DNA from: Chrysomallon squamiferum
Taxonomy: Eukaryota > Animalia > Mollusca
Direction of reading: 5' to 3'
DNA length: 64,000 nucleotides
Assembly (NCBI GenBank): GCA_012295275.1
Contig: CM022670.1
Coordinates: forward strand, 34,968,001-35,032,000
A program made the position numbers and the translations under genes. Within the stretch, counting starts at the first letter, position 1; each line of letters begins with the position of its first letter. Below, in pieces: positions 5,164 to 56,533 of the stretch. The notes below the pieces were generated by a model. It worked only from the letters and a program-made list of their open reading frames with translations, was not told where the DNA came from and searched no databases.

Positions 5164-5728
5164 ATAATCTTTGTAGGGATGTATGTTAACATATTTCCTA
5201 GATATTTCTTGATATTATGGTTACATTTTATTAACAGAAAAAAACCTATGTAGTCTTTGTTTTAACAGAATATCGTAAACATGTGTTCTGCTTTTTATAT
5301 TTGATTACAGATACCGATTCATTCGGAACTCGAAGCTCTTGGAAATTATTAACGAAACCTTTCCAGCAAGGATTTCCACAAGGGACATAACTCTTTTGTT
5401 GGGAGTATTGGCGGTAGGTTTCGTCATCACTTCTGTCTTGTTGTGCAATAGAAAAACATACTCTAAGGAATTTCGGCGAAGATAAGTTTGTTTTCTGGTG
5501 TGTACAGATAATTCAGCGCCGGTTAGTTAAAAAAAACGGTTTTCATATCTGAGCTGCATTGTTTTCCTTGCCTGACCAGACATTCGCGAAACCGAGGAAA
5601 CACGTGGCTACTTGAGTACCTCGAGCCTTTGTGTTAACACTAACAGAACAGCGAGATCTTAGAATTCCTGAACTGAATTCATTTGTACAGATCGGCGTTG
5701 CCAACACACCAGTGTCAAACATATCAAA

Positions 5729-6754
5729 ATGCCGGAACCAGTGATCGCAGGAAAAGTGGAACTCAAGAAACAAATTACTTTGTTTCAAGGAGTAGCCATA
5801 ATAGTTGGTATTATTATTGGTTCAGGAATTTTTGTTTCGCCTGTGGGAATTTTAATGCACACAAAATCAGTAGGATCTTCGCTGATAATGTGGGCTGTGT
5901 GTGGAGTTTACAACACGCTGTGTGCCCTCTGTTACGCAGAATTAGGGGCGTCGATGCCCGAATCAGGAGGCGAATATATTTACATCAAGCGAGCGTTCGG
6001 AGATTACCCAGCATTTGTTTGTTTATGGATTAACTTTCTGCTCATTTGTCCCGTGGGTGTAGCTGCACTAAGTCTTATTGCGTCTCTGTACCTGATTCAA
6101 CCTCTCTTTCCAGACTGTGATGTGCCACCGTTGGCTCAAAGACTGATTGCAGTTTGCATAATATGTAAGTATTATAACGAAAACATTCACTGTCGTAGAC
6201 ATGCTTCATAACAGCTTGCTCTGATTAGAACATTATTTTTTTTTTTTTTTTTTTTGTCTGTCTGTCTGTCTGTCTCAGGATGTTAATAATGAATTATTTA
6301 TGTTTGACATAAAATAAACATGGCATGGGATGGTACAAGATAGTAATGCCATGATGTTATTACCACATATATATCATACTCATTTCTATTTATTACACAT
6401 CAAAAGATTAGTATTAAATTTTAAAAATGTAAAAAAAAAAAAAAAAATTTAAAATTACTATTCAGACTTGATCCAATGAACCACCAAGAAGAAGGAATTG
6501 TCAACCAAATAAACTTGTTATATACTGTATGTTCATATACACTGTGATATATAACTATGTAAATATTTATAGTTTAGGTACTTTCCAAGAACTGAAGACC
6601 ATTAACAGTAATAGTAGTAGTAATAATAATAATAATAATAATAATAATTATGTGACCTCCAACATAAGTGAAATCCTGACAGGTTCCTAACTGATATAAA
6701 TTTGATTCCTGATACATTTTTCAATAATAATAATAATGTTTAATAATTAAGAAA

Positions 6755-6800
<46 letters not shown>

Positions 6801-7305
6801 GTAGTATTAATAATGTGAAAAACAGACATGGTGTGCAGTTAAAATACCTTCTGCATAGCTAAATTAAAAAATGTTGCACTAAAAAGCAGATTGAAATTAT
6901 GTTTATATATACAGAATGATGTGATTGTCTTTAACAAACATATTATATAATGTTCGAGTTAGAATTAAGTAAAACAGGATTTCCCCTTTTCTATAAATAG
7001 TTTGGTGTTTGTTTTATTATAGGGGGTTTTCCTTAAGCAATGTGTTAAGAGTTGAGATATCAGTTTGAATAAACTGTAAACAAACATGTTCGCTGATTAT
7101 CAATAGGCTTAATTTTTTTCTTCTTTATTTTATTTTTAAAGTTGTGTTTTTTTTATTATTAATAAAGTTATTATTATTATTAGTAGTAGTAGTAGTATTT
7201 ATTTATTTAATTTGTGTGTGTGTGTGATACATAATACAATATGTACAACATTGAAACTGTGTAAATGCCTACTTGTTTCCATTCAAGAATAATAATGGGA
7301 TGATG

Positions 7306-7381
<76 letters not shown>

Positions 7382-10300
7382 CACAGTTTTTTCCCATTGC
7401 CAGTGTTTAACTGTTAAGAATGTTTTTATTTCTGAAAAAAACTATTTCCTGTTTTCATCAGATTTTGAATAAAGATGGATACTATATGTTTTTGGAATAA
7501 AAACCTAGCTAAGGTGTCCATCTGTAACTAATTAAATATCTTTGAATGTTTTATATATAGCTTTTATCAAGTTGGTGATGTGTCACTTATTACATTACAG
7601 AAAAATTACCACATTAGTTTGTCCAGAGCCCATGTTGTTATTGTTGTTTTTATTACTATTATTATTATTATTATTATTACTACTACTACTATTACTACTA
7701 CTATTAATATTATCAATTATTATTATTATTATAACTACTACTTTAATTATACTATTATTATTATTATTATACAGATATATTTTAAATGTTGACTTATGAA
7801 GTAAAAAAAAAAGTATCATGCATTTTACTTTTTTAAACTCTTTCACTATCTCACTTTTACTAGTTTTATGCAATAGTCTTAGTCAGGATATATATATAAT
7901 AAATTTTTTTTTAAAAATAATATTCTGTAACATTGCAAGATTTAATTTCTAATTTTTACTGTGTCTTCCATAAGGTTTTCTCATTGCTGTAAACATGAGA
8001 AATGTCAAGTGGGCTACAAGACTGCAGGTTTTTATAACAAGCTGCAAACTGGTAGCATTGGCCATCATCATCATCATAGGATTTATCTATTTTGGAAAAG
8101 GTAATCTTAATACAGATACGATAACATTAACAATTATCAGAAACAGAGAAACATTCTCAAAACTGAACAGTGCTGGTATCGAGTAAGAAGTTTTGATTTG
8201 AGGAATGTTTGGTTTACAGAGGTTTCACATTTAAGTACTTGATAAATCATGGATACTTCCAGAAATTGTTCAGTTTTGGAGAATCACAGTTTAATCTATG
8301 TTACTCTGAAAGATTTGGTTTCATGAAAATAAATAAATGAAATACAGAATATGGATTATTACAAACAAACAAAACTTAAAATAAAAATAAATTTTTGTTA
8401 AATATTGATTTAGAAAAACAGAAAATCCCATTTGTTACTGTTAACATTACTGTTACATGAGAAGTTTCTAATTAGCATAATTTATTTATCTGAATATTAC
8501 ACAAGAGAAAATTAATCATTGTCATGTTTTAATTAAGTCCATATCAAATTACTTTTTCTGTTGTGGAATTCATAGTTCCTGACAGATTATTATTTTTTAA
8601 TCTCTTTTTTTATTTATATATATATATTTTTTTTTTTTTATTAACATTGGAATATAGTAAGAATTTGAAAGACTGTATTATTATATTATTATTATCATTG
8701 TTATCACTATTATTGTTATTGTGTTTATTTTTTTATTAATATATATATATTTTTTGCATATTTTTTTACTTATTTATTGATTTATTTGAAAATATAAAGA
8801 CTTATTTGCTAACTCTGGACTTAGTGCTTACTTGCTTACTTACTTACTTGTTTATTTATTTTTAGGAAGTACTGACAACTTTCAGAACTCATTTGAGGGT
8901 ACAGATTACTCTGCTGGGGCTCTGGCTTTGTCATTCTACTCAGGCTTTTGGGCTTACAGTGGATGGTAAAGTTCATCACATTTTATCCCGTTCTACACAT
9001 AACACCAGCACAATACAATTATTTCAGATCAAGTGATAAGAAAAAACAAAAAACAACTGTGTTCATTTATATAATTTTCAGAAAAACTGTTAGATTCTTA
9101 AAACTAATGAAAAATTTAAATTATATCAAAAAAAATAATAATAATAATAATAATATAGTGTACATATTATTTTAATTATTTTGGTTTAATGAGGATATCT
9201 TAAATCTGAAATATTTGGAACCAGAAATGTTTCATATTCAGAATTTGTTCAGACTTTGGAATATAAGGAGATAGTCTGAGCATAAGAAATCCAAATTTAA
9301 AGAAATCCATACTGATTTTAAAAACAGATATATATTAGATATATTACAGTTTATAAATACATACTAAACCAATCAAAAACTAAGATATGACAATTTCATT
9401 TGCTGTGAAAGATTTTTGTTGTTTGTTGGATTTCAAAGTCTTACACAAGATCCTCAACCTGTACTGAAACATAAGTCACTAAATAAGACAAAATGTCTTG
9501 ATTCATTCAAATAGCATTCTTGGCTACATTTTCCTAATACATTACTAAATATAATTATAAAGCAGTTTTCACATTAAGAATAAGACAGATCGTGGTAACA
9601 AAACAAGCTGTAAAATAATTACATAAATTTTATCTGTCTGTCTCAAAAATTAATATATCAGAAGACTGTCAAAAAGAGACATAAAACTGTTAACTGGTAA
9701 AATTTATTACAGTTGATAACAGTTTTTTAATGCCTCTAGGAATGTTTTATATGCACGACTGCGTTGTTTACATGTTTTCAGTGTTTCTGTATTTGTTTTT
9801 TTATACAGGAGTTACTTGAGTTTTCTGACAGGAGAGTTAGTGAATCCAAACAGGTGTGTCTTATTTAAAAAAAAAAATATATATATATTACAACCATCTT
9901 ATTTTTGTTTTAATTTTTGTTTATATTTTTGTTGTTTTTGTTTTTGTTTTTGTTTTTTAAATTTAATTTAAATTTTTAAAAAAAAATTTTTTTTTTAAAT
10001 ACCAACTTATGTATTCCACAGTGCCCAGAATGATTAAATTATTAAAGTTAATTATTCTTTATTTATAACTATCAAGGATAATTGTTAGTATTATTCATTC
10101 CATCTTCATGTCACCCCAGCCTATGTGTTTTCATTTATTTCTTTTTATTTAAAAAAAAAAAAAAAAAAAAATTAATTATTAATACATTCAAATGAGTTGA
10201 TGTTTACATCTGTGTTTTGTTCTAGCCTTTGATGTGATAATAGTGATGACTTTTTTTTTTTTTTTTTACTTTTGTGAACAATTTATTAATGTCACCCCAC

Positions 10301-13300
10301 GTAAAAGTGCTATGTTTTCAGTCACCACCTAAATCCATTCAAGATCTTTGATCCTGAAAACAAAAAAAATCCACTTCTTATAGCATGTGTCACAGGTCAT
10401 CTAACTCAATCGCGTGTTACCTGTAATTAACATGTCGACACGCAAGAAAATCATAACCCTGCAACAGGCATAACACTCTTCCCCAAAATAGCACTAATCA
10501 CATATACACACACACCTGCTTGTATCGGGTAGATAGCTACCCGATTTGGCTGAGTTCTGTGGGTGTTCAGGGAAACAAGGTCACATGCATGTATTTATAT
10601 TCAGCCAACATTAAATCACTAGATTAGTTTTAAAGAATGTATGTATGTATTATATGATCACATAAAAGTTATTTATCGAGTAAGCTTACAGTTTTATGTG
10701 TGAACATATGGGTGATATTAAATAGGTTTATCCTTACAGGAAAAGTAGTACACCTCAGTATGTATTTGAATGTGAAAGTATATCAAAACAAGGTGCTGCT
10801 TAGCAGGATACTGACGTAACAGTCAGTTAACAATAACACTACTGTGGTCTCATTGCTTTCAACACTGATGGTTGGTGTTGAGCTCAGATTCCCACTGTTC
10901 TCACTTACTGTTTTTAGAGATAACAGCCTGCAGTTTACTTTAATCAGTCTGATGTCAGATTACCAGCTATTCTCCAAAATAATGGTTATACAACTTCAAT
11001 TGTTTAAATACAGCTGTAAAAACTGATAGTAACTAAGTCCAGCAGACAGTTATCCTCACTCTCTCCTGTACAGTGTAAAATTGATTTCCCCCCCCCACTC
11101 AAAATATGACCTGCTTTTATTGCCTAGGAAAGAACACAAAGGGGGTCTTTTAATGATTCTAGAAAAGAAAAAAAAACATCACAATTTTTCATTAAGATTA
11201 AGAAATATATTAGAAATGAAAGACAGATTAAATGCATTTTGTCAGAGTTTGGTGTTAATGTTCTTTGATTTTAATGTTAGTCGTTTAGGCAGATGTTCCA
11301 CCCAGTACCATGAAGAAATTCTGTCAATTACAACTAGATTTTCTGATGCATTTCCACCACAACTTTGTTTTGTGAGTTGCTTGTTTGGTGTACGTGAACC
11401 TCTCTTAACAGATTTTGTTACCACCCTTATTGCTATAAATAACTTCCATATTAAACATACTTCTAGAACAAGCTGGAGAATATATAGTGAAACACATATT
11501 AACCTGGAACATTTTATATATCATTTACAATAGGAAACCCTTAGTTTAACCCTCCTAATCAGTAAGCTAGACCTAATCCTGCCTAACTGATACTAATTAA
11601 TAAATGTAACAAGTCACCACCCCTGCACAATATGAAGCCTCTTTCTTTAATCTAGCTTAACAATTACCCCATGCAGACTATGATGCCACATTCAATACTC
11701 TACAAACCCATAAATTTTATGACTTTTTTCCTGAGATTTTTTTCCTATACCAAATTGTGACTTTCTTTCCAGCCACCCTTTAAACATTTGTGTCTTAGGC
11801 TGGTGCTGAAATAGGTTTGGTAATCATGCAGACACTAGTGGGTCTCACAAAACAATGTTTCACCATGGCTTATATAATTCTTAAGCAAATCAAACATCTA
11901 TTATATATTAAGAGAAGTCTATCGTCCCTGTCACACTTGGCTTATATAATTCTTAAGGGTTACATATTTAAGAAGAGACTTTCATCTCTGTCACAGCATG
12001 ATACAAAGAAGTGCCAAAATTTACATACCACTTTATATATAATTTTTCACATCAGTTGATAAGAACAGGCTAAATCTGAATATGAGTTTTCCAGAAATGT
12101 ATATTTATTTTTGTTTTAATACTACAGTATACAATATTTTGACAAATCTTTTATTTTCAGAAATCTTCCACTTGCTATCATGATTTCCATGATAATTGTG
12201 ATATGTGTGTATCTTGTTGCTAATGTGGCCTACCTAGCGGTACTTTCACCTGTGATGATGTTGCAGTCGACTGCTGTTGCTGTGGTAAGCACACTGTCAC
12301 TGTAGTTTGTGTGTGTGTGTTACGTTTTTGTTATGACTTGTTAAGAAAGAATATCTTTCACGTTTATCAATACCTAAATGAATTCTTTGCACTGAAAACA
12401 CCATACTTCATTTGCAGAATTTGAAATAAATAGATATATTACAGTACTGGTTTATTTACAGTTTATTGCCTGAACCTGTAATTAGCTGTGGAATAAATGT
12501 TTATGTTAATTGTAAATCGTTATTATTGTTAATACTGTACTATGTGACAGGCTGTATTAATTACATTAATTACATTAATTAACACAGCATGTCAGTTGTT
12601 AATTATGTTAAATTATGCTCATTTAAACTCAGTTAAGTTTACCAGCTGTTCTACAAATTGTTTTTTTTTATAATACAATAAGTAGGTTATATGATATATT
12701 TAATTAAGTTATATTCTGTTAGTCAAAAATAATTTAATAAATACTTCTTGTCTAATTAAATTTTTATCTGTCACTGTTAGTTTTTTGCAATTTTTTTATT
12801 TTTTTTTTTAAATATATTTTCAAGTTTAATTAATAGGTCATATCTAATTATGATAGTTAATCCAGGGTACCATCTTTTAGTCAGAGAAATTTAATTACTT
12901 TATTTTAAACTTGTTTATTATAAGCTTCCACTGGACAACAGTGTATATAACTCTTACCCCAGTTTACAGTAAACTGTTGGCATAGTATGCCTAGATTTAT
13001 TTCCCCTTAAACCACTAATGATAAATTTCTGGTGGCAGTGCTGCCAAAAAAAAAAAAAATACACTGTGCTGTTGTTTCTTAAGTTTCATTTTAACTTCAG
13101 CTTTGAATTTGGGGTCAAACTAATTTTGAAACCATTTTGTAGAAATGGCATTAGCTTTTTAATGTTAAATGTAATAAAATTCACAGAAACTGTTTAGATC
13201 CTGAGAAATCTTATATCTGCCTCGTTTTGATGAAATAAAATTCATAAATCACATTTTGGTCCAACTTATGTTTTTTTTGTGTGTTTTTTAAGGTAAATAA

Positions 13301-13973
13301 AATGTTATTTGTTAATATTTTCAGAACAGGGGCACATTTCAAATCTGCTTATTCGTGTTATAATCATTTCTTCTTTATTATATTTTTTTTAAATTATAAA
13401 TTCAGACCTTTGCCAGGTACACAATGGGAGTGATGGAATGGCTCATGCCAATTCTCATAGCTATATCAGTCTGTGGAACAATGAATGGAACCGCACTTTC
13501 TATGTCCAGGTAACAGATGTGTGTTTCATAAATTACACATTTTTATTTAGATAAAACTGTTTTTATTGATATTCTTTATTTACTGTTTGTATGCTCAAAC
13601 ATGCACATGTAGGTGAAAAGAGTCAGAAACTACAAATTGTATCATTTTGGGCACGCTAATTTATTACTCATTTGATCTTTATTTTGTTTGTTTGTTCTTT
13701 TTAAAAATAAAATTAGTAGCAGTTTTCTTTTAAAAATAAATTTAAATAATTTTATCATGTCTTTGGGACACACCAGTATTCTGACACACACATATTTGGA
13801 CTTGCATACAGAGTTTCTCTTAATGACACCTGGCCACATTTTATACCATACCTGTGTTTAAGATAATTATATATTATTGATTAGTTAATACTTAAAAAAA
13901 GGGGAAAAAAAGGAAAAAAACAAATAAAAAAAATAAAAAAAAAATAAATAAAAAGTAAAATAAATAAAATATA

Positions 13974-14006
<33 letters not shown>

Positions 14007-14365
14007 AAAATCTTTTCTGTTAAACAGCTATATCTAATGAAAAATAAATACAGTTGTTTATTTAGACATGATCATTACTGCTGTTACACTGATCTTACTC
14101 AGTATTACTCACTAATCTCTTTTCTTAATGTTCTTTTCAGATTGTTCTTTATTGGAGCTCAAAATAATCACATGCCTCTGTTCATGTCGATGATTCATTC
14201 CACATTCTTAACCCCAGCTGCATCTCTTCTCGTCATTGTAAGTATTGTTCAGCTTCCTGCCTTTTAGTTTTGAGACAAGTTTTTGTAACAGTTAACTTGT
14301 ACTTAGTGAAAATCATTTTCAAAATACAGGTATTGCCTGTAAGCAACATCTGTAATTTGATGACT

Positions 14366-14439
<74 letters not shown>

Positions 14440-15853
14440 ATTTATATTTTTTTCAGTTTATTTCATTTCATTTTATTTTGTTTGTTTTATTTTATTTTCA
14501 AACAGAAAAGTTTATCTTATGCCTATATAGGGGGACTGTTATTGAATTTTTTTTTTTTTTTTTTTTTTTTTCAATTTATTTTACTTTAATTTAATTAAAT
14601 GATCATAATTTTTACCTACTGTAAAAAAACAAACTTGTTTGTATTATATTTAATTTTAATTTTCATATTTGAATTGTATTTTTTTCTTATTTTTTTTTTT
14701 ATATTTATTTATTTGTTTTATTTATTTTTATTTTTTTATTTATTTTTCAGCTCTTCTTGGTAATATGTTTTCAATCATCAAATGATATATGGTTTCTTAT
14801 TGAAATGGAAGGGTTTGGTTTTGCAACTATTTTAACAATAGTTTTTGCCGGTCAAGCCTACTTAAGGTGGAAGGAACCAAATCTCCATAGACCTATTAAG
14901 GTTTGTTTTCTCAATTATTAAAAAAATGAAAGTTGCCTTAGTTTTTTTCTAATAACAAAGTACAAGATTTATTCTTGTCAAGAAGAAGAAGAAGAAAAAG
15001 AAGAATAACAACAAGAAACACAAATAATAATAACAGAAAACATGTGAGCTAATAACTTTGTGATGAATTTATGTTTTGAAAGGTATGTTATGTTTTACTA
15101 TCTACCACAATAAACAGAAAACACAGTATAAAAATAATTACATACATAGTATTTTAACAAAAACAATGTGCTTAATTTTGTGCCCATATCAATCATATTA
15201 ATTTTAGTAGACAGAGATGATTTAAAAAGACAGTGTTTAAGTCAAAAGTAAGAGATAATTTATAAAATACATCAATATGCAGTGTTGAGAAACACTGAAG
15301 ATAAAGATTTAAAGCAATGCATAAATAAATGGCTTTTTGAAAGCCAGTTGAAAAAATTCTTTAGAATTATAATAGCTATAAGTAAGATGCCATCTGAAAA
15401 CAATGCATTTTATTTTGTTTGTTTTTTATCTCTGAATTTTTCATTTGATTTAGTAAATTGTTTTTGTGTGTAAGATCACATTTTCGTTGATATTTGAATC
15501 AGATTTAACAAATAAATATTTACATTTCAGTGATACTATAGTGTTAAACAAAATAATATTAAAAGAAAAGAAAAACATTCCAGGTTGATTATAATTTTTT
15601 TTAAATATTCTATTAATTTTTTAATATGTAATAAAAATTAAAACACTTTTTTTGCAGGTTCCCATTGTACTTCCTATAATTCTAAGTGTTATCACCTTTG
15701 CTATAGTACTTCTTACCTTCTACCAAAAACCAACAGAAAGTTTTCTAGCTCTAATACTTGTGGGTGTTGGAACAGTTCTGTACATAATTGGAAACAGATG
15801 GACAAAGAAACCAAAAGAAATCCAGAGCAAGATTGGTGAGCTGGTTTCTACAA

Positions 15854-15923
<70 letters not shown>

Positions 15924-16456
15924 TATTATTATTGTTATTATTATTATTCTCTCATTTTGTTCTTTGAGTACGATTAAAAAAAAAAAATCTTGATTCCTGA
16001 TTGGTAAATATGTTGTAAAATAAAGTCCTACAGAGAACATGTAGTGGCAAAAAAAGTGTGTGTCAGTAATCATAATATGATGTTAATCCAGGAGATGACA
16101 TTTAGTTTGTGAACAGCATAGGTTTCCAAAATCCTTCTAGTCTGATATAATTCAGAATTTACAAAAGTTTATATTCAAGCCTGTTTCAGCTGGATTAATA
16201 AATCTTTCAAAATTGGTAATAAAAATGTGTCAAGATTGAGAAATAAAAAAAAAAACAAAAAAAAAAAAAAATGTTAGTCTTTGTATTTGTATGTGAAAAA
16301 GTTTGATTCCATGTTTTAACAAAGAAACAGAAATTTATTCTTCATTTTATCTTTTTTTTTTTTTTCTTTTTTTTTGCAGATGGTTTTAACAAATTCATAC
16401 AGAAATTATTGCTTGTTCTACCTCAGGACAACCCAGATGAGGTGAAGTGGGATTAA
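5729..16456 (+). CDS. SLC7 family L-type/heteromeric amino acid transporter light chain (LAT/y+LAT/b0,+AT/xCT group), 478 aa
   Basis: Coding exons 5729-6164, 7975-8100, 8866-8965, 9809-9853, 12161-12284, 13406-13509, 14141-14237, 14751-14900, 15658-15835, 16380-16456. All introns GT-AG with consistent phases; total 1437 nt. Motifs: [29 protein letters not shown] (heavy-chain disulfide Cys), AYSGW, NP.RNLPLAI, HRPIKVP. The exact orthologue cannot be assigned by eye. Confidence 0.95.
9190..9463. mobile_element. Decayed Tigger/pogo-type MITE remnant in an SLC7 intron
   Basis: Right end ...gatcctcaacctgTA (reverse complement TAcaggttgaggatc). Left part gaggatatcttaaatctgaaatatttggaaccagaaatgtttc resembles Tigger-type MITE ends. 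Degenerate. Confidence 0.4.
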
Positions 16457-16569
16457 CATGTTAAAAAGCACAACACAGAAATTTTCTAAATTAGCCAGCT
16501 ACTCTGTCGGTCTGTACGTCTGTACATAAGCATTCAATAGTCTTTAATCATACATTTTTATTTATTAGT

Positions 16570-22781: not shown

Positions 22782-23457
22782 ATGAAGACGTTTGTTACAT
22801 ACGTAAGATTTACACATTTTATTCAGATTTATTTTCTATTTTAATTAATATTATATAGCATGTGAATTATGTATTGTGTTATTATTATCATTGTATAGTA
22901 AGATTAGTAGTCGCAACAATGTTGCGGCAGTAGTAGTAATAGTTATAGCAGTAATGATAGCAGTGGCTGCAGTAGCAATAGCAGTAGTAGTCATACTAAT
23001 AATCGTAGTATATATGTGTTGTATTTTTAAACTGCTAATGTTAATGATGATAATTCTGATGGGCGTTAGATTTAGAAATATGATTAACTTCAGAACTTTT
23101 GAAATCATCATTACTCAAATCCAGCAAATTCTGATATGTAAATAATTATGCTGAATCTGAATCAAGGTTATTTGATTAAAAACAACAGGTTTTATATTTA
23201 TTTATATTATCTATGAATATAGTTTATCTTAGCAAAAATATGTACTTATAATATTATATTGATTTCGATCAGTTTGTTTCAGTATCGGAAACTGCTGCAT
23301 GTTATGAGACAAACCTAAAAAAAAAAAATGGGAAAAAGAAATAAAAATTAATATATTTGTTTTTCATTTACATCATCATCCAAGGCACTAATTGCCACTT
23401 TTCCCCAAAACCATCATAACCAACAACAGTAACAACAACAGTAATAATAATAATAAT

Positions 23458-23493
<36 letters not shown>

Positions 23494-23540: not shown

Positions 23541-23578
<38 letters not shown>

Positions 23579-24262
23579 ATAATAATAATAATAATAATGT
23601 TAAGGTTTTAATACATGTTTTACTGGACATTACAGATTTCCTTGGATGATGTATATGGCAAACTTACTGTACAGGTTAAAGATATGTTCAGTGGAGTCGG
23701 TGCATCGCAGTTACCTGTTCACGTTCTTCAGAACACAACCTCAGGTGACTGGCAACTTATTGAGAAAGGGTATTATATTATATTATATTATATTTTATTA
23801 TATTATATTATATTATATTGTATTATTAAATTTCTTCCGGATACTTCCGTCTACAAAGAAGTAACAAAATCATCATCATCATCATCATTTACATTTACTC
23901 AAATCCAGCAAACTTTGGTATATAAACTATTATGCTGAATCTGAATCGCCTGTCATTTTATATATCTTAAAATCTACACTCCTTGAAATGATATATTTCT
24001 TTTGACAGATCTCTAAAATTCATTATTAAAAATGTGAACCTTCAAACATGTAATAGACAAAAGAATAAAATAAAATGACTTTTTTTTCATTAAATATGTT
24101 TCAGACACACTGATCAAGATGGTGTTTTTTCAGTAACAAAAGTAAAATCTTCGAAATCCGACGAATCGTTGTATAAAGTGAGAGTCCAGACTTCTTCGTA
24201 TTTTGATGAAATGGAAATGGAATCGTCTTTTCCCTTCATTGATGTAGGTAACTTACTGAGAT

Positions 24263-24351
<89 letters not shown>

Positions 24352-24692
24352 ATGTATCTCTATCTTGTACAGTGCCTAGTTGTTATTTTTATTGTCAGTG
24401 TTATTTTTGCATTCTGTAGCAGATGAGAAGAAAAGGGAAAGCAAGAGAGAGAGAGAGAGAGAGAGATAGAGAGAGAGTTATAATTTTAAGCCGGTATTTA
24501 TGTAGAAATATTTATATTAATAATAAAAAAGGACTTAAATAACATACTGTACAAAAGTAACATACAATTATTTCAACTGTATTTCAGACAGTATTTCACA
24601 TGAGGAGTGACTGGTCACATATCGTTGTTTCAGTGAATATCAGTCCGTTTGGATATAATGTTTTTCTTCAGCCGAAAAGATTGGAAGAATGA
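22782..24692 (+). CDS. Transthyretin / 5-hydroxyisourate hydrolase family protein, catalytic residues lost (~132-142 aa)
   Basis: Core exons 23636-23769, 24105-24243, 24588-24692 splice in frame to ISLDDVYGKLTVQVKDMFSGVGASQLPVHVLQNTTSGDWQLIEKGHTDQDGVFSVTKVKSSKSDESLYKVRVQTSSYFDEMEMESSFPFIDTVFHMRSDWSHIVVSVNISPFGYNVFLQPKRLEE*. This aligns with the TTR/HIUase motifs L..V.D...G, W....G.T..DG, YK...T.SY, FP...VF and SP..Y. The first coding exon is uncertain: 22782-22802 (MKTFVTY) or 23014-23064. Confidence 0.85.
23415..23598. repeat. Compound (AAC)/(AAT)/(ACT)n microsatellite in the TTR-like intron
   Basis: Direct reading; explains the poly-N/T and poly-L/V ORFs at 23388-23649. Confidence 0.95.
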
Positions 24693-24882
24693 AAACTGTC
24701 AGAAATTATGAAATTCAGCGATAAACCACTAATAACATACTTATTCTGAGAAGAAATAACAACATATTAAATGCCGTGAATTCTAATCAAAGGTGCATAG
24801 CATCAGATAACAACAACAACAACAACAATAGTATTGGTGGTGTTGGTAGTAGTAGCAGCAGTAGTAAAAATAATATTAGTAT

Positions 24883-24917
<35 letters not shown>

Positions 24918-25405
24918 GTACTACTACTACTAATAACCAGTAGACCAGTTCTTTTTTGTGTTTTTTTGTTTTGTTTTGTTTTTTCTCTTTAAACTGAAGA
25001 TATTCACAGATTATGATAAATTAGTCTGAAATGAATATACGAAAACAAAAATAATAAGTTTGACCACTTTATTACAAAACGACTCTTTACATATGTATCG
25101 TTATTATTTACTTGATGTAAGTTGTTACATTTATGTGCTATACCAACATGTGTTTGATAAAGAAAAGTATAAAAATATACAACATCACTACGAAACATGC
25201 CTGGAACCAAATTTATTGAGTAATAGACAGCAGCAACAACAGCAACAGTAAAGCATGATTTATGTACGCTTAAAAACAGGAAGAAAAATAAAATGTGTTT
25301 TCGAAATGTTTAATTGTTTTATTTTTGAATTTAAATTAATCAATCAAAAAATATGAGAGAGACTTTAAAAATTCTTCAAAAATTATGAGAGAGAGGCCTA
25401 TCGGA

Positions 25406-25990
25406 ATGTCGCCGCCATTCGTTTGCTTATCCAGCGGTGTAAATAATAAAAGTCATCCTTGTGTTAAAATGGAATTAGGTGTGCGCAACATATTTATTTT
25501 TGGAAAAAAAGTACCAGTCATTTTGGTTTATTTCTCTGATTTCTGTTGAGACTCCTGATTCCAGTTTTATTATTGTTATAATTTTTATCCCAGATTTAAA
25601 TTTCTGTATAGTGTAATCATTATTTTTTGAATCGAAGAACTAATTACATAAACACCGAGCAGTTACTAGATGACGTAATTGTTCTTGTCAAGCGAAACCA
25701 ATTGGTGACGTCTGATAAAGTTGCATAGAGCAATTTTACTTTTGTTATTTTTTATTTCCAGTAAATACTTTTGGTATATTTTATTTCCAGTTTATTATGG
25801 GAGGTACAAAAAAAGGTGAGTTTATTACAGCAAAAATCACGTGAAAAAACAACAACAACAAATTAAAACAACAGAAACAAAACCAACAATTGAAATTATC
25901 CAATTCCGCACAAAGAAACCACATACATACATACCCATACGCAATCATAACACACAAATTACAAGATACGTATATACACTCGCTCTCTTT

Positions 25991-35859: not shown

Positions 35860-37007
35860 ATGGCTGGCCGAGATATTTCAAAAACATTTGAAGAATTTGA
35901 ATGTGATGATATCAGTTTGGAAACGTCTGTTCCCACTGATTTGACGTTGTCTCCTGACCAGAGTGACGGGGAAGGTAGAGGAAATCGAAAAAAGCGCATA
36001 ACAAAACAACTTATAGAACGCAAGCAACTTGTCCATGATATACAGGTGTTGAAAATTGAATTATCACAGAAAAATCTACAGATTGAAAACCTGAAGGCTG
36101 AATATTTACAAAAGACAGAAGAACTTGAAGAAAAACTAAACGACGCTCTTCATCAAAAGCAGATTCTGACAGCTCGACTCGAATCACAACTACAGGTACA
36201 TCATATCTGTCTCTCTCGCTATCGCCCTCTCTCTCACTCTCACACCATTTATACAGTTAAATTTCAAGCCATATGATATACACTTGAAATGTTATTAAAA
36301 CTTTAAAATGTATAGGTTTTACAGAATCATTTGTCTATAATTATATTTATATTATAATAAAAGCAGAACTAATAATAATAATAAAAAGAAGAAGAATGTA
36401 ATATTTAATATATTTAATGTGTTTAATAAACTTTAATGTATTTTTTGTAGTTACAATGTTTGATTAATGTTCAAGGTAGCCACCTAAGATTTTTATTAAA
36501 GTACATTAAAAAAAACCCTACATTTGCAGAATATAATTATTCCATTATAATGTCACATCATGACTACTTTTTAAATTATGTACTATAAATATACTGCTAT
36601 AAAATGGTTAATATATCATTACATTAGACTTATATGTGCATATGTCACTGTGTGTATGTGTGTTTGAACTAATATATTGTGTGCTTTAAGTAGTATTATT
36701 ACACCTCTATTTATTTATTTTTATATACCTTTAAAAAAATTAGATTCAAGAAACAGAATCAAAGAGACGTCAAGATTTAATACGGAAAGAATTAGAAGAA
36801 GTTCGCAGGAGACAACAGCAGTTAGAAGGTGTTAATGAAAGGTTACAGGAGAAAGCTGGAGATGTGAGAAGAAGTCTGAAAGATCTGAGTTTATCTGAAG
36901 AAAAGTACTATGACCTGAAGACTTTGTCAGAAGATGATTTATCTCTCAGAGATTATGTTGCGGTATTAGTTTACTCATTACAATTCAAACAACTTTTATC
37001 ATATCCT

Positions 37008-37068
<61 letters not shown>

Positions 37069-40000
37069 CAATGATCAAAAACATAAATAAAAAAGATTTC
37101 TAAATGTTAAAATTATTTAATTTTTTGTCTAAAGTATAAAAGAATTGTAACTTTTATCTTTTAGAAATGATAGCATGGTAATCTGGAATTTGAATTCATC
37201 TTGTTGATTATAGTCAATAGTTTTACTGTCCAAAATTATACTGATATTTCTTTAGGTGATAGTTATCATGGAATGTTTCTTTTATCTAGCAAAATGAATG
37301 AAAAAATATTTTCTTGCTGTTAATATTTTTCTGTAAAATTATCTTGCTTAGTGAGGACAGTGTCATTATATTTGAAATTTTTCTTTTTTTCTTTATCATA
37401 CTGTGTTTGACATAAATTAATAATAGACAGTATATTACAAAAGAAATATATTTATTCATTAATTCATTTTATTGATTCATAATTAAAACATTGATTTTTA
37501 GCTCCGGTTGTTTGAAGTAGTAAAACCACTGAAGACAGAAATTGATCAGCTTCGACTCAGAAATAAAACTTTAGAGGAGGAAACAAAACTAAATAGCAGA
37601 GAGGTTTTGGAGTTGCAGGAGGTACATTTTAACATCATTATAAAGGCTTTAGAGAAGATTTAATATTTACTGAAAGATATTTATCATTATTTGTTTACAA
37701 AGAGAACTATATAAATGATTACAAAATTTAATATTAAATGTCTAATACCTTTCATTGTACTGTTAAAAGAACAAAATAAAACACATCACTGTACCCAGTC
37801 CTCAAGGAAAAATATTCTTAATTTGTTACTATATCCTTGTTTGTGTTACTATTAATATCATTTCAGTATGTTTTCTAGTTATATCTTCCAACTTACAATT
37901 ATATTCATGTTAGTTTTTAACTTTGTCTTCCATGGTGTTCATGCATGTGAGTATATGCATGCATGCCTGCTTGTTAGAACAGTATGGACTTTTAATACAT
38001 AACAAGTTCAAAACAAGCTGCTCAGAAGAAAAATGCAAATGATAATTGAAATTATATATTTCAGCAACTAGCTGAAGAAAGACAGGCCCATGGAGAATTG
38101 CGGGTTGGATATCAGAAGTTATGCGAGAGCTTGTTAGAAACCAAGGACAAACTGCAGCATGATAATTTCAGAGTTGAGAACTACGACAAAGTGAAAGGGT
38201 AAAAATAAATGTTTACAGTCAACCTGCCTTATATGTGGTTTTGGCATCCTGGCTGTTTATAAAGATATATATTCTGAAGATTTAAAAATTTTGAGACATA
38301 AAATGTGTAATATGCATGCTTTCTGGTGGTTTTCAATAAAACAGAGGAATGTGTTAACTGTATAACTGATGTTTAATTAATGTAGTAATACATAGGACTG
38401 TTGATGGCTGAAAGTGGAGAAATATTTTTAAGTATTCCACAATTATCAGTAACAGTATTTTATTAAAATTTGTTTACAGTATTTAAGTTATATTGAGTAA
38501 AGATTGTATTAAATTGTGTTGAATATTATTTCATTCAAATTTAATAATAGTAACAAATGGCTTAATTCTTAACATTTTAATTTCTGCATGCCAGTATTCA
38601 TCTGACCAGAAGTGCATGGCAGAATAATTCCTGAACAGTATTATTAAGTTTCTGTTACATTTTTTTTTAATGACATTGTAAAATTAATAACATGTTACAT
38701 ATTTGAATCAATAATAAAATAATAAAAATTTCTGGAGTAATAATTGAGAAATACTTGAGAAATACTTTTTTTTTATTAATTTCTTTCTTTCTTTCTTTTA
38801 AAAAAAAAAAAAAAACAAAAAGGAGAAATTATTTATTTTGTTAATTATTAAATAGAGAGAGAGACAATCTAGAGAGTGATCATCTAGATGTTCATCGACA
38901 GTTGTCTGTGTTGGAAGCTGCTCATGGAATCCTACAGAAAGAGAGAGATGACCTTTGTAGAGAGGTTCGTCACTATTACCATTCTGTTACACACAGAAAT
39001 TAGACTGTCTAAGATAAAGATCTTTATTGCAAAATATAGATATCTTCCAGGATTTGTGGATCCATAGTTATTAATTATTCTCTGGCATATCTTTTTTTAA
39101 ATTAAACAATTAATATTGTTCTGTTTTCTGATATACTTGTAATGTATAGGCGTATGACATAAATCATTTCAGTTACTGCAAAATACAGATACACCCAGGA
39201 TACATTTTTAAATTAACCAGTTGAATAGTGTATGCTCTATCTTACATATGTTTAGTACATTTACAGTTTTGCACAATGATTCATTTAAATACGTAGGGAA
39301 TGTCTGTATTTAGCAAAAGATGATAAAGCAGTATCTTGTGCTCTTCTTGTTTTTATCTAACATTTTACATGATTATGTAATCCCAAAAGAGAAGAAATTA
39401 CAAAACAAAGCAATGAATTATGCTTTATTTTTATCCAGAGAGTCAGTTTTAAATGCCTGCTGTATTTTTGTATTTGTTTTTTTATGTTCTGTTCTAGTAC
39501 TATGCTGTGTTTTTTCTTATTTAATTATTTTATTTTTTTCAAATTATGTAATAAAGAGGAAGTCTAGATTATAACATATATATATATTTTTTTTCTCACT
39601 TTTGTAGTAAGCAAGATAATGAGTTATAATTTTGTTTCTCAAAACAGCTGGCTACAGCTAAGCAGTCACTAGCTCTGCTAAAACAAGACAAGGATTATCT
39701 AGTAAAACAGGTTGCTGATTATTCAAACAGAGCTTCATTTGCAGAGGAAAAACTTCAACAACTCAATCGACAGCTTGATGACTGTAAGGCTGCAAGAGAA
39801 GAGATGTATGAAAAGTATATAAGTTCAAGGTAAGCTTTGGTTTTGTTCTGTTTCTTTTTTCTTTAATTTTTAATTTAATCTTTAATTTCTTTTCTATTTC
39901 TTTTTTTTCTTGTGTTTTCTGTATTTTTTTCTATATTTTTTTAACCTTCTGTTTTCTGTTTTGTGTTTTCTTTCTTCTACTTTTTTTTTCTATTTTACTT

Positions 40001-43000
40001 TTAGATAAAAGTGTAAATCATAAAACTGGTTTTACCCTTTTACAGTTCAAAATACTTGTTTGATTATTAATTACATTACTTGTTTACTTCAGTGAATAAA
40101 ACTGGATAATTCCATTATAAGATTATTAAAAAAATGTTTTTTAGTAATTTTGTTATAAAGTTAATATTTTTAAATTTTTATTTATTTTTTTATTTTATAA
40201 TAAATTATTATTTATTTTATTATTATATAATAATTATTGTTTGATTTTTGATATATTGTTTTGGTATTCTAATTTTATTCTAATTATTATTTCATTGTTT
40301 GTTTTGTTTTAATATAAAATGCAGTTTAATATAAAAATGATATTTTTGATTGTTTTTATAATTTTCTTGGTTTATTTATTGTTTTTATTATTATTTTTTT
40401 TTTGTTTATAGTATACATTTTAATATATTTTTTTTAATATGTGTTTTTCAATTGGTTTATTTATTTATTTTTATTTTTTTAATTTTTTGATGTCCTTCAC
40501 AGAGACCAGTATAAAAATGAATATGAAAGCAAGTTACGAGAAGAACTGGAACAGATAAGAATTAGAACCAACACAGAAATTGACAGACTTAGAACATCAA
40601 CAAAGGAAATGTATGAAAGAGAAAACAGGTTAGATACATCCACAAATTCAAAAAAGAAAAAAATGTATTATTATTAATGAAAATGTACTCATACGTCTGA
40701 TGTTTTTAAGTTTGTTTCCATCTGTCCATGGTCCATTGTATTGTTTTCGTGTTGTCAGAGAAAGAATATAAAAAGGATATGATATTCCTTAAAAAAATCC
40801 CTCAAATAACAATACATCATTAATTAGTTCTTTTATTCAGTACATTTTATCTTTGGTCAAAGCATGGTTCAGAATACAATATAAATTTAAAAGGTAAATC
40901 AAGTCCATATTACGGGTACATCAAGTTTATGTTATTTAATATAGATAAAATATCATTAACTATCCATTTGTCTTAATAAATGTTTATTTAGTAGAACTTT
41001 TCTATAACTTCAGGTTAAAAAATAATAAAGAATTAAAAGAAAAGCAGAGAATAATGTTTTATTTATTTATTTATTAATAAATTATTTAGTTTTTGTTTTT
41101 AAATGATCTAGTTATATTTTAACCACAGGAATAAAAACTCTGTACATACAAAAAATGGTCAGAAATACACTCACAAATAAAAAAAATGTTTTCATATCAA
41201 GAGCATGACACATCTTATTGGTATAATTATTAATAAAAGAGAATATATTGTGTGTATTGCAGACTTCCGTGATAAAAATGTTTTCGTACCAAGACATGAC
41301 ACATCTTATTGGTATAATTATTAATAAAAGAGAATCATGTGTATTGCAGACTTCCGTGATAAAAATGTTTTCGTACCAAGAGCATGGTACATCTTACTGG
41401 TGTAATTGTTAATAAAACAGTATTTTGTTTGTGTGAATTGCAGAAACTTGCGGGAGGCCCGTGACCAGGCAATATCAGAAAAAGAGAAGAGTCAGTGTTT
41501 AGAGAGAGAAATGAAAACTCAGTATGACCAGCTACTCAACGAGTAAGTACAGGTGTTCAAACACCACATCATTAACTATAAAATGTATACGTATAATATA
41601 TCCAGTAATGGAATACATTTTGTGAGGAAGAATTAAAAACCAACGGTGACCTTTTTCTAAGTGCTTAAATACCATAAATGCTCCACAGGTGACAGCTTTA
41701 GTAAATAGTTCAATTAAATGTTATTAAATGTGTGGAGTAAATCTTATATTTTAACTATTTTTTATAGTCGGTAACAAGATGGTAGGCTTATGAAATCTTG
41801 CAAAACAAGGAGTCTCATAAAAGGATAATTATCATGTTCCATTCAGAATGAGTTTTCTTTTATTTCACTTCAAGGTGTAAGACTAACATAGAGTTGATGG
41901 ACCTTACAATTGTCTGCAGAAATCAGTTATAATGCAGATATTGCAGCTGAAACAGCAGTCGTTTTGACTAAAATATATTCAACATTTTAAAAAGAAATAT
42001 GTTTTTAACATTCCAGAGTTGGAAATTGTAAAATTGTTGAGGACATGGCCTTTTTTCCATTTATCACTAGTTTTTTAAATTTAAAAAAGAAACCAAACAT
42101 TGTATATACTTTTTTTTTTATTTAATTATTTATTAATTATTATTATTATGTTTAAAATGTTTGTGTTTTTGGTATAGTTATCTTAATAGCAAAGGTTATA
42201 TATTCAAGGACAAATAATCAAAATGATGAATAATTTAATAATTCAAATTTATTTTATTCTTTATTATTATTATTATTTTTATTATTATTTCTATTGTTAT
42301 TGTTATTGTTATTGTTATTGTTATTGTTATTATTAATAAACAAATAAGTTATTTAACATTTTTATTTATTTATTTATTTTGTTTTTTGTTCCTCCAGATT
42401 CAGAAAGCTGCAAACCAGTGGAGATAACAGATACTCAGAATTGATGAATGACTTCAAAATTAAATCTTTTGAACTGGAACGAAATCAAATGGTGCATGAA
42501 GAAACTGTGAGAAACTTGAAAGAATCACAGATTGAGGTTGAAAAGCTGCAGAAGAAAGTTGAGGTAATTATCTAAGTTTAGCCAAAGCACTGCATTCCCT
42601 CCTGGAATGTTCATTTGAGGAGATGTAAGAATACATCTACTGTACTTCCAAGTTAGTGTTTTATTAAAATCAGGCAATTAACTTTGAACAACTAAACAGA
42701 TATCCTTGATACATTTAGTATACTTCAAAATGATAATTTTTATTGGCTAATAACAGAAATTAAAACAGTGTCAATGCTTTTTCTTCTGGGTTCCTTTTTG
42801 TATCATATTGTACATAAAATTTATATATGTAGTTATATATATTTAAATCTCTTGGACTATAATAATTTAGTAAATGATTTCTTCAGTTTCTGGGTTTTTC
42901 CTGTTTATATTTACAAAATAAAAAGGTGAAAAAAGAAATAATCTTATTCCTTTCATAATCAGATATTTCTTACTATTTGTATTATATTTTATCATGAGCA

Positions 43001-44872
43001 TGGAAATTTATTAAAAAGGTCTCGGTCTATCTACATGCGTAAGAAAGTGCCATCAATAAAGACACTGTATAAAACATATAATTATTAAAAACTGTTCACT
43101 GTGTATTCTATGCTGTAGGTGTTAATGAAAGAGTACCACACACTTGAGATGACTATGGAGAAGAGAGTTGTGGAACTTGAAGGAACTCTTTCTGAACAGA
43201 AAATGAAACTGCAGACATACGAGAAACTTGAACAGGAGCTCGATGACGTTGTGATGCAGGCTGCTGAAGGTAATGCTACTTCAATAACCCACAAGAATTA
43301 AAAGTTGTAACTGCAGTATTTATATGTTTGAATTTAATTAGAATGTTGGTGGTAATGATTTTTAAAAATGTAAAGTTATGACTGCTGTGTTTATCCGTCT
43401 CATGTTAATAAGACTGTTCGATGTTAGAAAAAGTAAAAAAAGAAAAAAGTTGTATTTACTAGTCTGACAAGAAGACCAAGAGTATCACTAAATGTGATTG
43501 TTAGTGATTAAATCCCCCCAAAAGTCAATAAAACTCCAAGCCAGTAAAATATTTCTATGCATTTTTATGATTGATGATAATAATGATGTTATTTGCAGTT
43601 TTTGTGATAACAGTTTCACACTGCCTGAGGTTTTTTTTTGTTTTTTATCAACTGTTTCGTCAAGTTTTGTTCATAAAACAGTGTGAATACATAACCTAAA
43701 AAGTTAACCTCAGTTTCTTAAATTTGTAATAAACAAACTTTATATTTAATTACACAATTTTAAATTGTTTTGATCCTGTCCTGATTAATCATTAAGATGT
43801 ATGGATCGACTGAATTGCATTTATGTATTTATTCTTAATTTCATTCTTTCTAACTCCTTTTATTCAGTTTTCAGTTTTCTGTTTTCTCTCTTTCCTCTGC
43901 TTTTTTTTGGTTTTTACTCTTAGATAAAAGATAAATATTATTATAACTAGGTATTTTATTGAATGTGTTGTTATTTTTCAGTGGAAGATGAGCAAGATGC
44001 TGAAAGAGTATTGTTCTCCTATGGCTATGGTGCCAATGTCCCAAGTACTGCTAAGAGAAGATTACAACAGAGGTAGTTCTGTTTGCTTTAAATTGCTACA
44101 GTTGTTGATATGGCAGTATTAGTTCCTTAGAAATAAATGAGCAGATCTATGTAATAACAGGTGAAAGTATAATTGGATTTATATTTTAAAAAATGCATTA
44201 AAATTTTATTCTTAAACCTTTCAGACAAATTGTCTGGGAGTTTAATTCAGTAAAAACATTATTTTGAATGTTATATATTTTCCAAATAAAAATAAATATT
44301 AAAAAAAATAAATGTGTTATTTATTTGATTTTGTGGGGTTTATTTCCTGTTAAACAATTTATGAATCTGTCTGTATATGTACAGACAATATCAGAACAGA
44401 CACAGACACATGCTAAATAATTTATGATATAATAATTTAATACTATTCATGAATCAGACCCTTTTAAACAAGATCTGTGTATAAATACAAACCAGTATGT
44501 ACAGTGCAAACTTGCACATTGAGCAGATGTTAAAACAATTACTGAAATATTGTATTGTAATTTAAATGTAATTTCATAGTGTCCAGCTTGCAAGACGTGT
44601 TCTAAATGTTGAGAAAACCAACACATCATTGAGACATGAAATAGAGAGAGAGAAACAGAAAACACAACAGCTTGCTGAGGAGGTAATTCTTCTTCTTCAT
44701 CTTCTTCCTATTATTATATTTTGCATTATACAGACATTCATTGTTCCAGTTTTGATGTAATAATGTGGAAAGATGAATAAAATGAAACCAAATCTTATTC
44801 ATTTTAAATAAAAATATTCTGTTATTAGAACTTACAAGATTAATTAATTAATTAATTAATTAATTAACTTAC

Positions 44873-44907
<35 letters not shown>

Positions 44908-46931: not shown

Positions 46932-47423
46932 ATGATGAAATCTGTGAATATAAAAATTAAATAAAACTCAAATTACTGTGATACTAAAATATCGAATATA
47001 GCTTTGTGTGCTTAGATGAAGAATAAATAGAAGACAGTTATGTAAAATCATTGTCAGATTTGTATGCAGTCTAATAATGCCCCCAAAATTTAGCCTCTTA
47101 AAAATTATATTTCACCTTTACCCTTTTTTGAAAGAATGTTTTTATCAGTTTTAAAGTTACTTACCTTTTGTAACCTGGTTGAAACACAGAATTAAAAATG
47201 TGTTAAAAATTTCTTACATATTGAAATTACAGCTACATTGCATTAAAATATTTAAATCAAATGTTCTGTTATTCTTCAAACATTTATTTCAAAACTTTTT
47301 TCAAAACAATATGCAACCATATTTTCAAACTTATATTAAATAAATTCTAGACACATGGCAAAGTATATGAAGATATTTACTTGTTTATATTATTTCCATT
47401 ATATATTGTTTTACATTTTTATT

Positions 47424-50787: not shown

Positions 50788-51097
50788 TCATTCCAACATA
50801 ATATAGTCCACTTTTTCTGACACTCTTTTGCAACCAGTCACTGAAAATGCTTCAGTGTCTTTAGGATAAAATGTCAATTCTTTCAAAATGCTATTAACTA
50901 GATCTTGTTTAATGTGAGCCTTTTCACTGAAGTATTTCTTCCTGACTAGTTCATCTCTGATACATTCTTTTACATGAGTCTTGGTGAGTGGTAGGAACGG
51001 GATAAAAGCTGTTATGAGATGTTTTGTGATGAGCTCACTGTGCCACAAGCCACCTGTAGTAGAAAGATATGAAGATATTATTTCAACAGATTATATT

Positions 51098-51140
<43 letters not shown>

Positions 51141-54100: not shown

Positions 54101-54731
54101 AAGCAAGAGCCTTTGCGGGGTTTTCAGATCTCACATGTCCTTTTATGTGGTTAATAACTGCTTTCATAACAAGGTGCTGACCATATAGTTCATTTTTCAT
54201 TGCTGGATGCAAACCTGTATATAATTACAGTAATATAAAATGTAGAATTAGATTAATCATACAATAGTAAATATTAATAATAATAATTATAATAATAAAT
54301 AAATAAATAAACAAATATGGGTAGCTAAAAAATCCACAGAAATCCAAAAGTATATTTTATTTATCCATTTATTTTTTTTTTTTTTTTCAGTTTTCATTCC
54401 TGTTACTTCGATCTATAATTCATTAAGACTCTTTACTTTTGTTTTTGGTGTTGCTGTTATACTGCATACATTTTAAATTTAATGTTAAAATTGTTTAAAC
54501 CTATCATTGATAAACAATAATAATACCGGAAGTATTTCTGAGAATCCATCGGTTATCACAATTCTCAGTAAAATAACTGGTCAGATCTTTGAAGTTGCTT
54601 ATCAATGCAGACACAACAAATGCAAAACCGGCAGTAATCCCAGAAATTGGTTCTAAGGCACATATGGGTCTAACTGCTACCAAAAACAGACAATATAATA
54701 AGCATAATAAATTTAGCCATTTGATGTTCAT
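50788..54731 (-). CDS. TOR1A: Torsin family AAA+ ATPase (torsin-1-like), copy 1, complete, 345 aa
   Basis: Exons 54731-54527, 54214-53949, 52985-52810, 51884-51760, 51053-50788 (1038 nt). Signal peptide plus hydrophobic N-terminal segment, LYGQHL, Walker A GGTGTGKN, Walker [12 protein letters not shown] sensor-1, FIPFLPL and redox sensor-II GCK. The symbol denotes the family; one-to-one orthology is not established. Confidence 0.95.
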
Positions 54732-54779
54732 GTTGATATCGAAAGTACTCTAGCTTGAGACCGAGAAGTATTACGCTTC

Positions 54780-55580: not shown

Positions 55581-55641
<61 letters not shown>

Positions 55642-56446: not shown

Positions 56447-56533
<87 letters not shown>

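Follow-up and report, generated by a model that had tools for sequence, protein, structure and literature searches.

The conversion of hydroxyisourate hydrolase (HIUase) into transthyretin (TTR) is the textbook case of an enzyme that became a carrier. Two reviews describe it, in the portions available, as a single event at the base of the vertebrates that proceeded by duplication. Studies have reported that single substitutions at active-site positions abolish rapid hydrolysis in the S. dublin TLP (PMC4324301, in excerpt). Single active-site changes cost zebrafish HIUase about 99% of its activity, and two changes, I16A and Y116T, suffice to turn it into a T4 binder (PMC13751858, sections available). 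The uricolytic enzymes are described as being gained and lost together (PMC10120013, in part). Individual members have nonetheless been retained after the pathway was broken: the uricase of sauropsids (CRUOX) was co-opted (PMC10517255, in excerpt), and human URAD is kept as a near-inactive OHCU decarboxylase (PMC13751858, from sections 16 and 18).

The locus compared here with these systems lies in a stretch of 64,000 nucleotides from Chrysomallon squamiferum, known as the scaly-foot snail, referred to as the window. This is AT-rich animal DNA, rich in microsatellites, and judged by its sequence it holds an intact, spliced HIUase-family gene without the catalytic set (Table 1). Four coding exons give a 132-amino acid ORF with intron phases 0, 2 and 0, and introns 2 and 3 have GT..AG borders. 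Exons 2–4 together comprise 125 codons and the stop; intron 2 falls in phase 2 inside the Gly of EKG and intron 3 in phase 0. An earlier note on this DNA had proposed a three-exon gene of 125 codons. Its exons proved real after small coordinate fixes and its intron placement was recovered, while the first coding exon had been overlooked. The phases match the positions in TTR, which we take to be those of animal HIUase and TTR genes in general. This match had been read as a link to TTR, but it does not discriminate, as HIUase and TTR genes have a common intron–exon organisation (PMC13751858, in part).

Table 1. Features of the HIUase-like gene and its neighbours in the window, with the equivalent residues of HIUase and TTR.
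Feature	Position	Strand	Details
Neighbour: SLC7/LAT-type amino-acid transporter	5672..16458	+	PF13520 E 5.8e-21; last exon read from sequence
Exon 1, coding part	22782..22802	+	ATG, 7 codons, peptide MKTFVTY, phase-0 GTAAG donor
Exon 2	23636..23769	+	134 nt; phase-0 acceptor at 5' end, no start codon
Exon 2 residue Q20	23672-23674		HIUase His12 / TTR Lys15
Exon 2 residue K22	23678-23680		HIUase Leu14 / TTR Leu17
Exon 2 residue M24	23684-23686		HIUase Ile16 / TTR Ala19
Exon 3	24105..24243	+	139 nt; PF00576 match; RNA contig X3; 61% identical to G. aegis orthologue
Cryptic AG acceptor within exon 3	24132..24133	+	inferred from piece coordinates, contig X2 record 8
Exon 3 residue D57			HIUase Asp50, kept
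Exon 3 residue V59	24124-24126		HIUase Arg52 / TTR Glu54
Exon 4 to TGA	24588..24692	+	105 nt including stop
Exon 4 residue V111			HIUase His103
Exon 4 residue S113			HIUase Pro105
Exon 4 residue N115			HIUase Leu107 / TTR Leu110
Exon 4 residue N122			HIUase Ser114 / TTR Ser117
Exon 4 C-terminus			F124-L125-Q126-P127 in place of YRGS, then 5-residue tail
Likely 3' UTR	24693..25450	+	RNA pieces to 24798, 24993-25155, 25057-25244
Poly(A)-like hexamers	24766 (ATTAAA), 25287 and 25445 (AATAAA)	+	in likely 3' UTR
Neighbour: long coiled-coil gene	35860..47000 (approximate)	+	ORFs; Pfam generic coiled-coil matches only
Neighbours: two torsin-like genes	50788..59978	-	PF06309, PF21376 twice
TMEM144-like exons between the two torsin-like genes	55885-56757	+	PF07857

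RNA contigs support all three junctions of the four-exon gene. They come from four runs of one study and are of low depth. The junction 22802>23636 is present in one of the four runs (21 letters on its short side) and 24243>24588 in two. The middle junction does not appear in the junction table, which skips repeats. Intron 2 is crossed by two contigs; one fits the in-frame acceptor at 24105, the other a cryptic acceptor at 24134, the use of which drops 29 nt and leads to a stop after 65 codons. Four further RNA runs (X5–X8, from three studies) covered microsatellites only and none of the exons. It has also been noted that A>G accounts for three of the five differences between RNA and DNA, at positions 23679, 24138 and 24725. 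The first of these, in a single contig of depth 3.4, turns Lys22 into Arg, the residue found in Gigantopelta aegis. These differences may be alleles, A-to-I editing or errors.

Membership of the family is clearest in the orthologue from the peltospirid vent snail G. aegis, XP_041358433.1 (P0001), which at full length matches PF00576 with 63 bits, over the cut-off of 25.3. Exon 3 of the window gene taken alone reaches 21 bits (E 5.5e-4) and so stays below that cut-off, and exons 2 and 4, each scanned alone against Pfam, gave no match (one exon of the three matched in all). The family assignment made earlier holds through the orthologue, with exon 3 of the window gene, taken alone, sub-threshold. 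Against the HIUase equivalog TIGR02962, P0001 scores 62.1 bits, under the cut-off of 87.45.

The earlier note had claimed the loss of the HIUase catalytic residues, and this stands. Ten active-site positions were taken from the list in PMC13751858 section 7, and nine are changed in both snail proteins, with Asp50 retained. His12, Arg52 and His103 are Gln, Val and Val in the window and Gln, Val and Phe in G. aegis; the three are invariant in 129 of 129 canonical sequences compared, a set partly chosen by these motifs. In the window protein Pro105 has also given way to Ser and Leu107 to Asn. The C-terminal YRGS is replaced by FLQP and a tail in the window and by TVEI in G. aegis, a protein in which there is no histidine at all. 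The losses are not due to chance, because an orthologue with the same losses exists.

The PTS2 leader usual in animal HIUase is absent from exon 1, and of two PTS2-like motifs in the plus-strand frames of 16460-23635 neither has an upstream Met or a phase-0 donor. No secretory signal peptide was seen in a simple scan, the best 8-residue hydropathy in the first 30 amino acids being 1.5, compared with 2.6–3.4 for three signal-bearing bacterial proteins. Predicted pI values are 5.3 for the window protein and 4.9 for that of G. aegis. A cytosolic location is considered very probable.

XP_041358433.1 is the sole match to exon 3 at E<=0.001 in a full HMMER scan over 1.84 billion representatives. As the query has 46 amino acids, relatives under about 50% identity would escape it, and the scan covers a range near the peltospirids. 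The two proteins are 51.6% identical over 128 amino acids and share the start peptide, the catalytic losses and the neighbouring gene families. They differ in that G. aegis has Thr rather than Phe at the Tyr116 position, Arg rather than Lys at that of Leu14, and no C-terminal tail. A word-based homolog search with exon 2 yielded nothing from two candidates, a search with the snail alignment passed one of 73 candidates, P0001 itself, and when metagenomes were scanned with P0001, none of 102 pattern matches was confirmed. Feature matches in the ESM Atlas are all PF00576 clusters; unnamed clusters score 0.78, below a meaningful level. Among the structure neighbours there are a cluster of 73 chordate members, annotated as a fusion of cadherin with PF00576, and a 538-amino acid arthropod PF00576 cluster (81 members), which may be unusual family members or annotation artefacts.

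The chromosomal setting is shared. In the window the long coiled-coil gene is presumably PIBF1-like. Consecutive rows of the G. aegis annotation list torsin, LAT, PIBF1, HIUase (ctg709-3.2-1), torsin and TMEM144 (PMC7895826 supplement file 6), and the LAT, both torsin and the TMEM144 families agree with the window by Pfam. From this synteny it was inferred that ctg709-3.2-1 is XP_041358433.1. The name of the latter, "transthyretin-like", is automatic. In the table of the authors, the gene at the syntenic place is named "hydroxyisourate hydrolase" (K07127), a label that would be a mis-annotation if the two are one gene. The two torsin-1A-like copies in the window have near-identical exons, and the G. 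aegis block also contains two torsins. Between the HIUase-like and the PIBF1-like gene sits a nested inverted duplication of about 9 kb (25733-34644, centre near 30400), with arms that are 81–97% complementary, e.g., 28459-28689 with 31667-31897 and 25733-25810 with 34567-34644; it may represent a foldback element, or else an inverted duplication of some age.

Six derived states are common to both snails: His12>Gln, Leu14>Lys/Arg, Ile16>Met, Arg52>Val, Leu107>Asn and Ser114>Asn. It follows from these shared residues that the catalytic loss predates the split of the two species, which has been dated to about 116 Ma (71–184) in the part of PMC7895826 available.

The origin of the gene can be traced through its first exon. 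The peptide MKTFVTY is identical in G. aegis (7/7) and agrees at six of the seven residues with the canonical HIUase of the bivalve Potamilus (P0081), as against at most three of seven in 128 other proteins compared. A second bivalve HIUase (P0125) has a PTS2-type start and diverges at the point equal to snail intron 1. This suggests that the molluscan HIUase has two alternative first exons, and that the snails retained the non-peroxisomal one. The short seven-codon exon encoding MKTFV.Y is conserved between bivalves and gastropods. Descent from a molluscan HIUase therefore appears highly probable. With respect to HIUase proper (zebrafish 2H1X/2H6U, bivalve KAK3590422.1), the snail proteins share the fold, the exon layout, the bivalve first-exon peptide and 17 of 43 family-conserved columns. 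They differ in the replacement of His12, Arg52, His103, Pro105, Leu107 and YRGS, in the missing PTS2, in a pI of 5.3 against 8.55 for the bivalve enzyme, and in an orthologue that falls under the TIGR02962 cut-off.

The fate of the uric-acid pathway was followed in the G. aegis annotation table of 21,440 rows (PMC7895826 supplement file 6), by names and by KEGG/KOG identifiers. It holds one HIUase/TTR row, the syntenic ctg709-3.2-1. There were no rows for uricase (urate oxidase), OHCU decarboxylase, allantoinase, allantoicase, malate-synthase-like ureidoglycolate lyase or guanine deaminase in the 21,440, an absence that refers to one species' annotation table with no positive-control table from a pathway-bearing mollusc beside it. 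The table does list XDH (three rows), PNP, HPRT, PEX7 and seven deiodinase-like genes. As a positive control, five supplement files of the glass scallop gave no matches and include no full annotation table; the same applies to a name search of the readable scaly-foot snail supplements. G. aegis has possibly lost purine breakdown below xanthine oxidase, which would be unreported so far.

One family row together with no uricolytic rows points to an orphaned HIUase, and the gene is probably a single orphaned copy rather than a duplicate. The opposite reading is that these genomes still contain a canonical HIUase at another locus, as is the case alongside vertebrate TTR, which would be compatible with any of the functional alternatives considered below. 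Annotation tables overlook genes, and the homolog search listed the best 120 of 8000, so that absence is not demonstrable from it. Set against this are the lone family row in a table devoid of other uricolytic enzymes and the 64 kb of the window, in which no second HIUase-family copy occurs. A duplicate is thus unlikely, if far from negligible.

An orphaned HIUase would resemble CRUOX and human URAD in being a uricolytic orthologue retained after the pathway broke, and CRUOX in having lost the peroxisomal signal too. These are, however, other enzymes of the pathway, and the active site of CRUOX is intact. In apes it is HIUase that became a pseudogene, whereas in the snails HIUase is the surviving gene.

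Structure models were made for P0001, standing in for the window protein. The AF2 model (pLDDT 84.7, pTM 0.74) has eight strands and a helix at 87-93 in a prealbumin-type beta-sandwich, and superposes on TTR with Z 19.4 and an rmsd of 1.2 A over 111 aligned residues. Four copies gave an ipSAE of 0.91 versus 0.00 for the best control; the runs share no fewer than 70% of contacts, with partner pLDDT at 79 or above. In calibration, 21 of 30 microbial pairs attained this mark but none of 23 single chains did; among eukaryotes it was attained by 17 of 29 pairs (7 of 16 in animals; one of seven where no older solved relative exists) and by none of 30 single chains. A TTR-like tetramer, proposed as a check in the earlier note, is therefore predicted for the orthologue, but the prediction may reflect memory of the solved TTR and HIUase tetramers. 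The equivalents of K22, M24, N115, N122 and F124 in P0001 fall within the predicted interface.

The proposed explanation is that this is the lineage's own HIUase gene, likely retained after a likely loss of uric-acid breakdown. Its product would be a cytosolic, non-catalytic homotetramer with a re-lined polar channel that binds a small polar anion, not thyroxine. At each of the two tetramer sites, Q20, K22 (Arg in the orthologue), N115 and N122 would stand in pairs in place of His, Leu, Leu and Ser, creating a site of amide hydrogen-bond donors and one basic pair, with no acid–base catalyst. Urate is the single best guess for the ligand, since in a snail without uricase purine breakdown would end with it; the protein would serve to buffer or carry it inside cells of the gill. 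As a specific claim urate is doubtful, and the loss of just those residues that hold the purine in HIUase, His12, Arg52, His103 and Tyr116, does not speak in its favour. The next candidates would be inorganic anions (iodide, HS-, thiosulfate).

The explanation taken as a whole stands evenly poised between right and wrong, and the proposition that ligand binding in the channel is the selected job could go either way. Conservation of the channel counts against a binding role, with five of nine positions identical between the snails compared with 63 of 126 overall, which is not above average; an inner set, picked post hoc, has four of five identical and a K/R exchange. The history, that of a dead HIUase kept by selection independently of TTR, is firmer than the function.

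The gill enters through expression data. A synteny table pairs ctg709-3.2-1 with a C. squamiferum gene (score 64; neighbours 139–1150), which is listed as 7.38-fold in "Gill vs Others" in the accessible part of the PMC7142155 supplement. The Gill and Scale columns duplicate each other in that part of the sheet, and this makes the label ambiguous; gill is likelier than scale because the gene identifier appears nowhere else in the 13 files. The value may also not carry over to the window gene. The identifier ctg709-3.2-1 occurs in only two of ten G. aegis supplement files, and is absent from a differential-expression list taken as the oesophageal-gland set.

The binding role in the channel has to be weighed against a purely structural one, in which the tetramer is kept for a protein partner or a chaperone-like, anti-aggregation function while the channel drifts towards polarity. 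The snails are indeed identical at 27 of 43 family-conserved columns but at only 36 of the 83 others (one-sided Fisher p 0.03), and the channel shows no such excess (5/9). Both E. coli HIUase YedX and human TTR inhibit CsgA amyloid formation in vitro (PMC12925577, in part). YedX, however, works through positive surface charge, and the snail proteins are acidic. In addition, the unusual channel residues Q20, N115, N122 and a basic residue at 22 persist in both species, and one RNA contig changes Lys22 to the Arg of G. aegis, at a depth (3.4) where error or editing is possible. A scaffold with no channel function is accordingly rather unlikely, though a serious competitor.

A further alternative, the lead of the earlier note, is a convergent TTR analogue with iodothyronines or iodotyrosines as its ligands. 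Its fold, that of TTR, and the tetramer predicted are in keeping with this, as are the deiodinase-like genes of G. aegis and its Thr at the Tyr116/Thr119 position; Y>T alone gave T4 binding to the amphioxus TLP (PMC4324301, excerpted). The hormone site itself argues otherwise. With a register set by PDB sequence match and structure alignment, TTR residues K15, L17, A19, E54, T106, A108, L110, S117 and T119 correspond to Q, K, M, V, V, S, N, N and F in the window (0/9), and G. aegis agrees at one of nine, T119. Polar or basic residues replace Leu17 and Leu110. The substitutions of Lys15 by Gln and Thr119 by Phe had already been read correctly as Q20 and F124, and neither matches TTR. At the T4-enabling positions Ile16 and Tyr116 the window protein has Met24 and Phe124, so neither channel-opening change is present in it and thyroxine-type binding is doubtful; G. 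aegis, with Met and Thr, has one of the two. The protein is also not a secreted distributor, because it has no signal peptide. This reading is held to be decidedly improbable.

That the re-lined site has become a new enzyme with a different reaction is very unlikely. The basic-plus-amide set does occupy the old active site in both snails, and co-option with altered chemistry is known for the sauropsid uricase (PMC10517255, part available). Yet no channel-facing His, Cys, Asp or Glu is conserved except Asp57, and the orthologue is histidine-free.

The gene could also be a decaying remnant left after the loss of uricase, like the ape pseudogene URAHP; HIUase was pseudogenised along with uricase in apes (PMC10517255, in part). 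The window branch, at 3.35 against 0.95, is a long one, contig depth is low and one splice form is frameshifted. The long branch and the frameshifting cryptic acceptor, used in one of two contigs, fit relaxed constraint. However, the frames are open in both species at 51% identity. In a neutral simulation, AT-biased, tuned to 51% protein identity and ignoring indels, 11 of 5000 pairs kept both ORFs stop-free, and three of 5000 also kept the splice sites and starts. The gene has been kept under selection, it is argued, because an ORF at such divergence rarely stays open neutrally. Conservation biased to the core and the conserved exon-1 peptide likewise speak against decay. It is thus highly probable that selection acted after catalysis was lost, and a decaying remnant is hard to credit.

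Least of all does the gene look like vertebrate TTR's true deep orthologue or like one transferred from Bacteroidota, a barely credible origin despite top fold matches to TTR chains, which dominate the PDB, and a best blast score to Bacteroidota-type HIUases among the proteins compared (78 versus 68 bits for the bivalve, in a search seeded with a Bacteroidota fragment and covering the best 120 of 8000), since the exon-1 peptide is of mollusc type. The introns presumably stand at animal HIUase/TTR positions. Among PDB sequences, P0001 matches the reconstructed HIUase-TTR ancestor best, at 60.6 bits; the TTR ancestor reaches 51.6 bits and human TTR about 39–42 bits. In a tree of 24 of 131 proteins, which included no TTR or chordate HIUase and drew 14 members at random from the Bacteroidota-type majority, the two snails pair on a long stem outside a starred clade of 15 Bacteroidota-type rows; a grouping of snails and bivalve was not recovered but not rejected (p-AU 0.36), and long branches meet there. 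The deep TTR relative suggested earlier is not supported, given the six of seven residues shared with the bivalve HIUase start, the missing signal peptide and the 0/9 hormone-site count. The other half of that suggestion, an intact and transcribed TTR-fold gene lacking the catalytic set and most likely derived independently of vertebrate TTR, is upheld.

The snail protein and vertebrate TTR are thus alike in being derived from HIUase with the fold preserved and the same catalytic set gone, with a tetramer predicted in the snail and Thr119 matched in G. aegis alone. They differ in the signal peptide, in the hormone site, where Leu17 and Leu110 have become polar or basic in the snail and Ala19 is Met, and in origin: the snail protein likely arose without duplication, from an orphaned gene, in a protostome.

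Searches of the literature on transthyretin or HIUase in molluscs and on Gigantopelta transthyretin found no description, though a family-wide survey could already include such sequences. In the parts searched of the two snail genome papers the gene is not named, and the main text of PMC7895826, so far as available, does not contain the word "transthyretin". A dead HIUase variant of vent-type snails is apparently undescribed, and it is likely an independent rerun of the origin of vertebrate transthyretin. Put tentatively in its fullest form, a second natural conversion of HIUase into a ligand-binding protein may have occurred: vent snails would have lost uricolysis and kept HIUase by way of a non-peroxisomal first exon, an Asn/Gln/Lys cage would carry a gill anion (urate, HS-, thiosulfate or iodide), and one species would have converged on Thr119.

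For the biology of these animals, the gene hints that vent snails may have lost uricolysis, a loss so far unreported, and the K07127 annotation "hydroxyisourate hydrolase" would have to be corrected. If true, the removal of the same catalytic set in a protostome, while selection maintained the fold, would amount to nature's own replicate of the origin of TTR. Such a replicate would test whether the outcome, in ligand, channel shape and the change of Tyr116 to Thr, is repeatable or contingent, and two small, easily expressed proteins suffice for the comparison.
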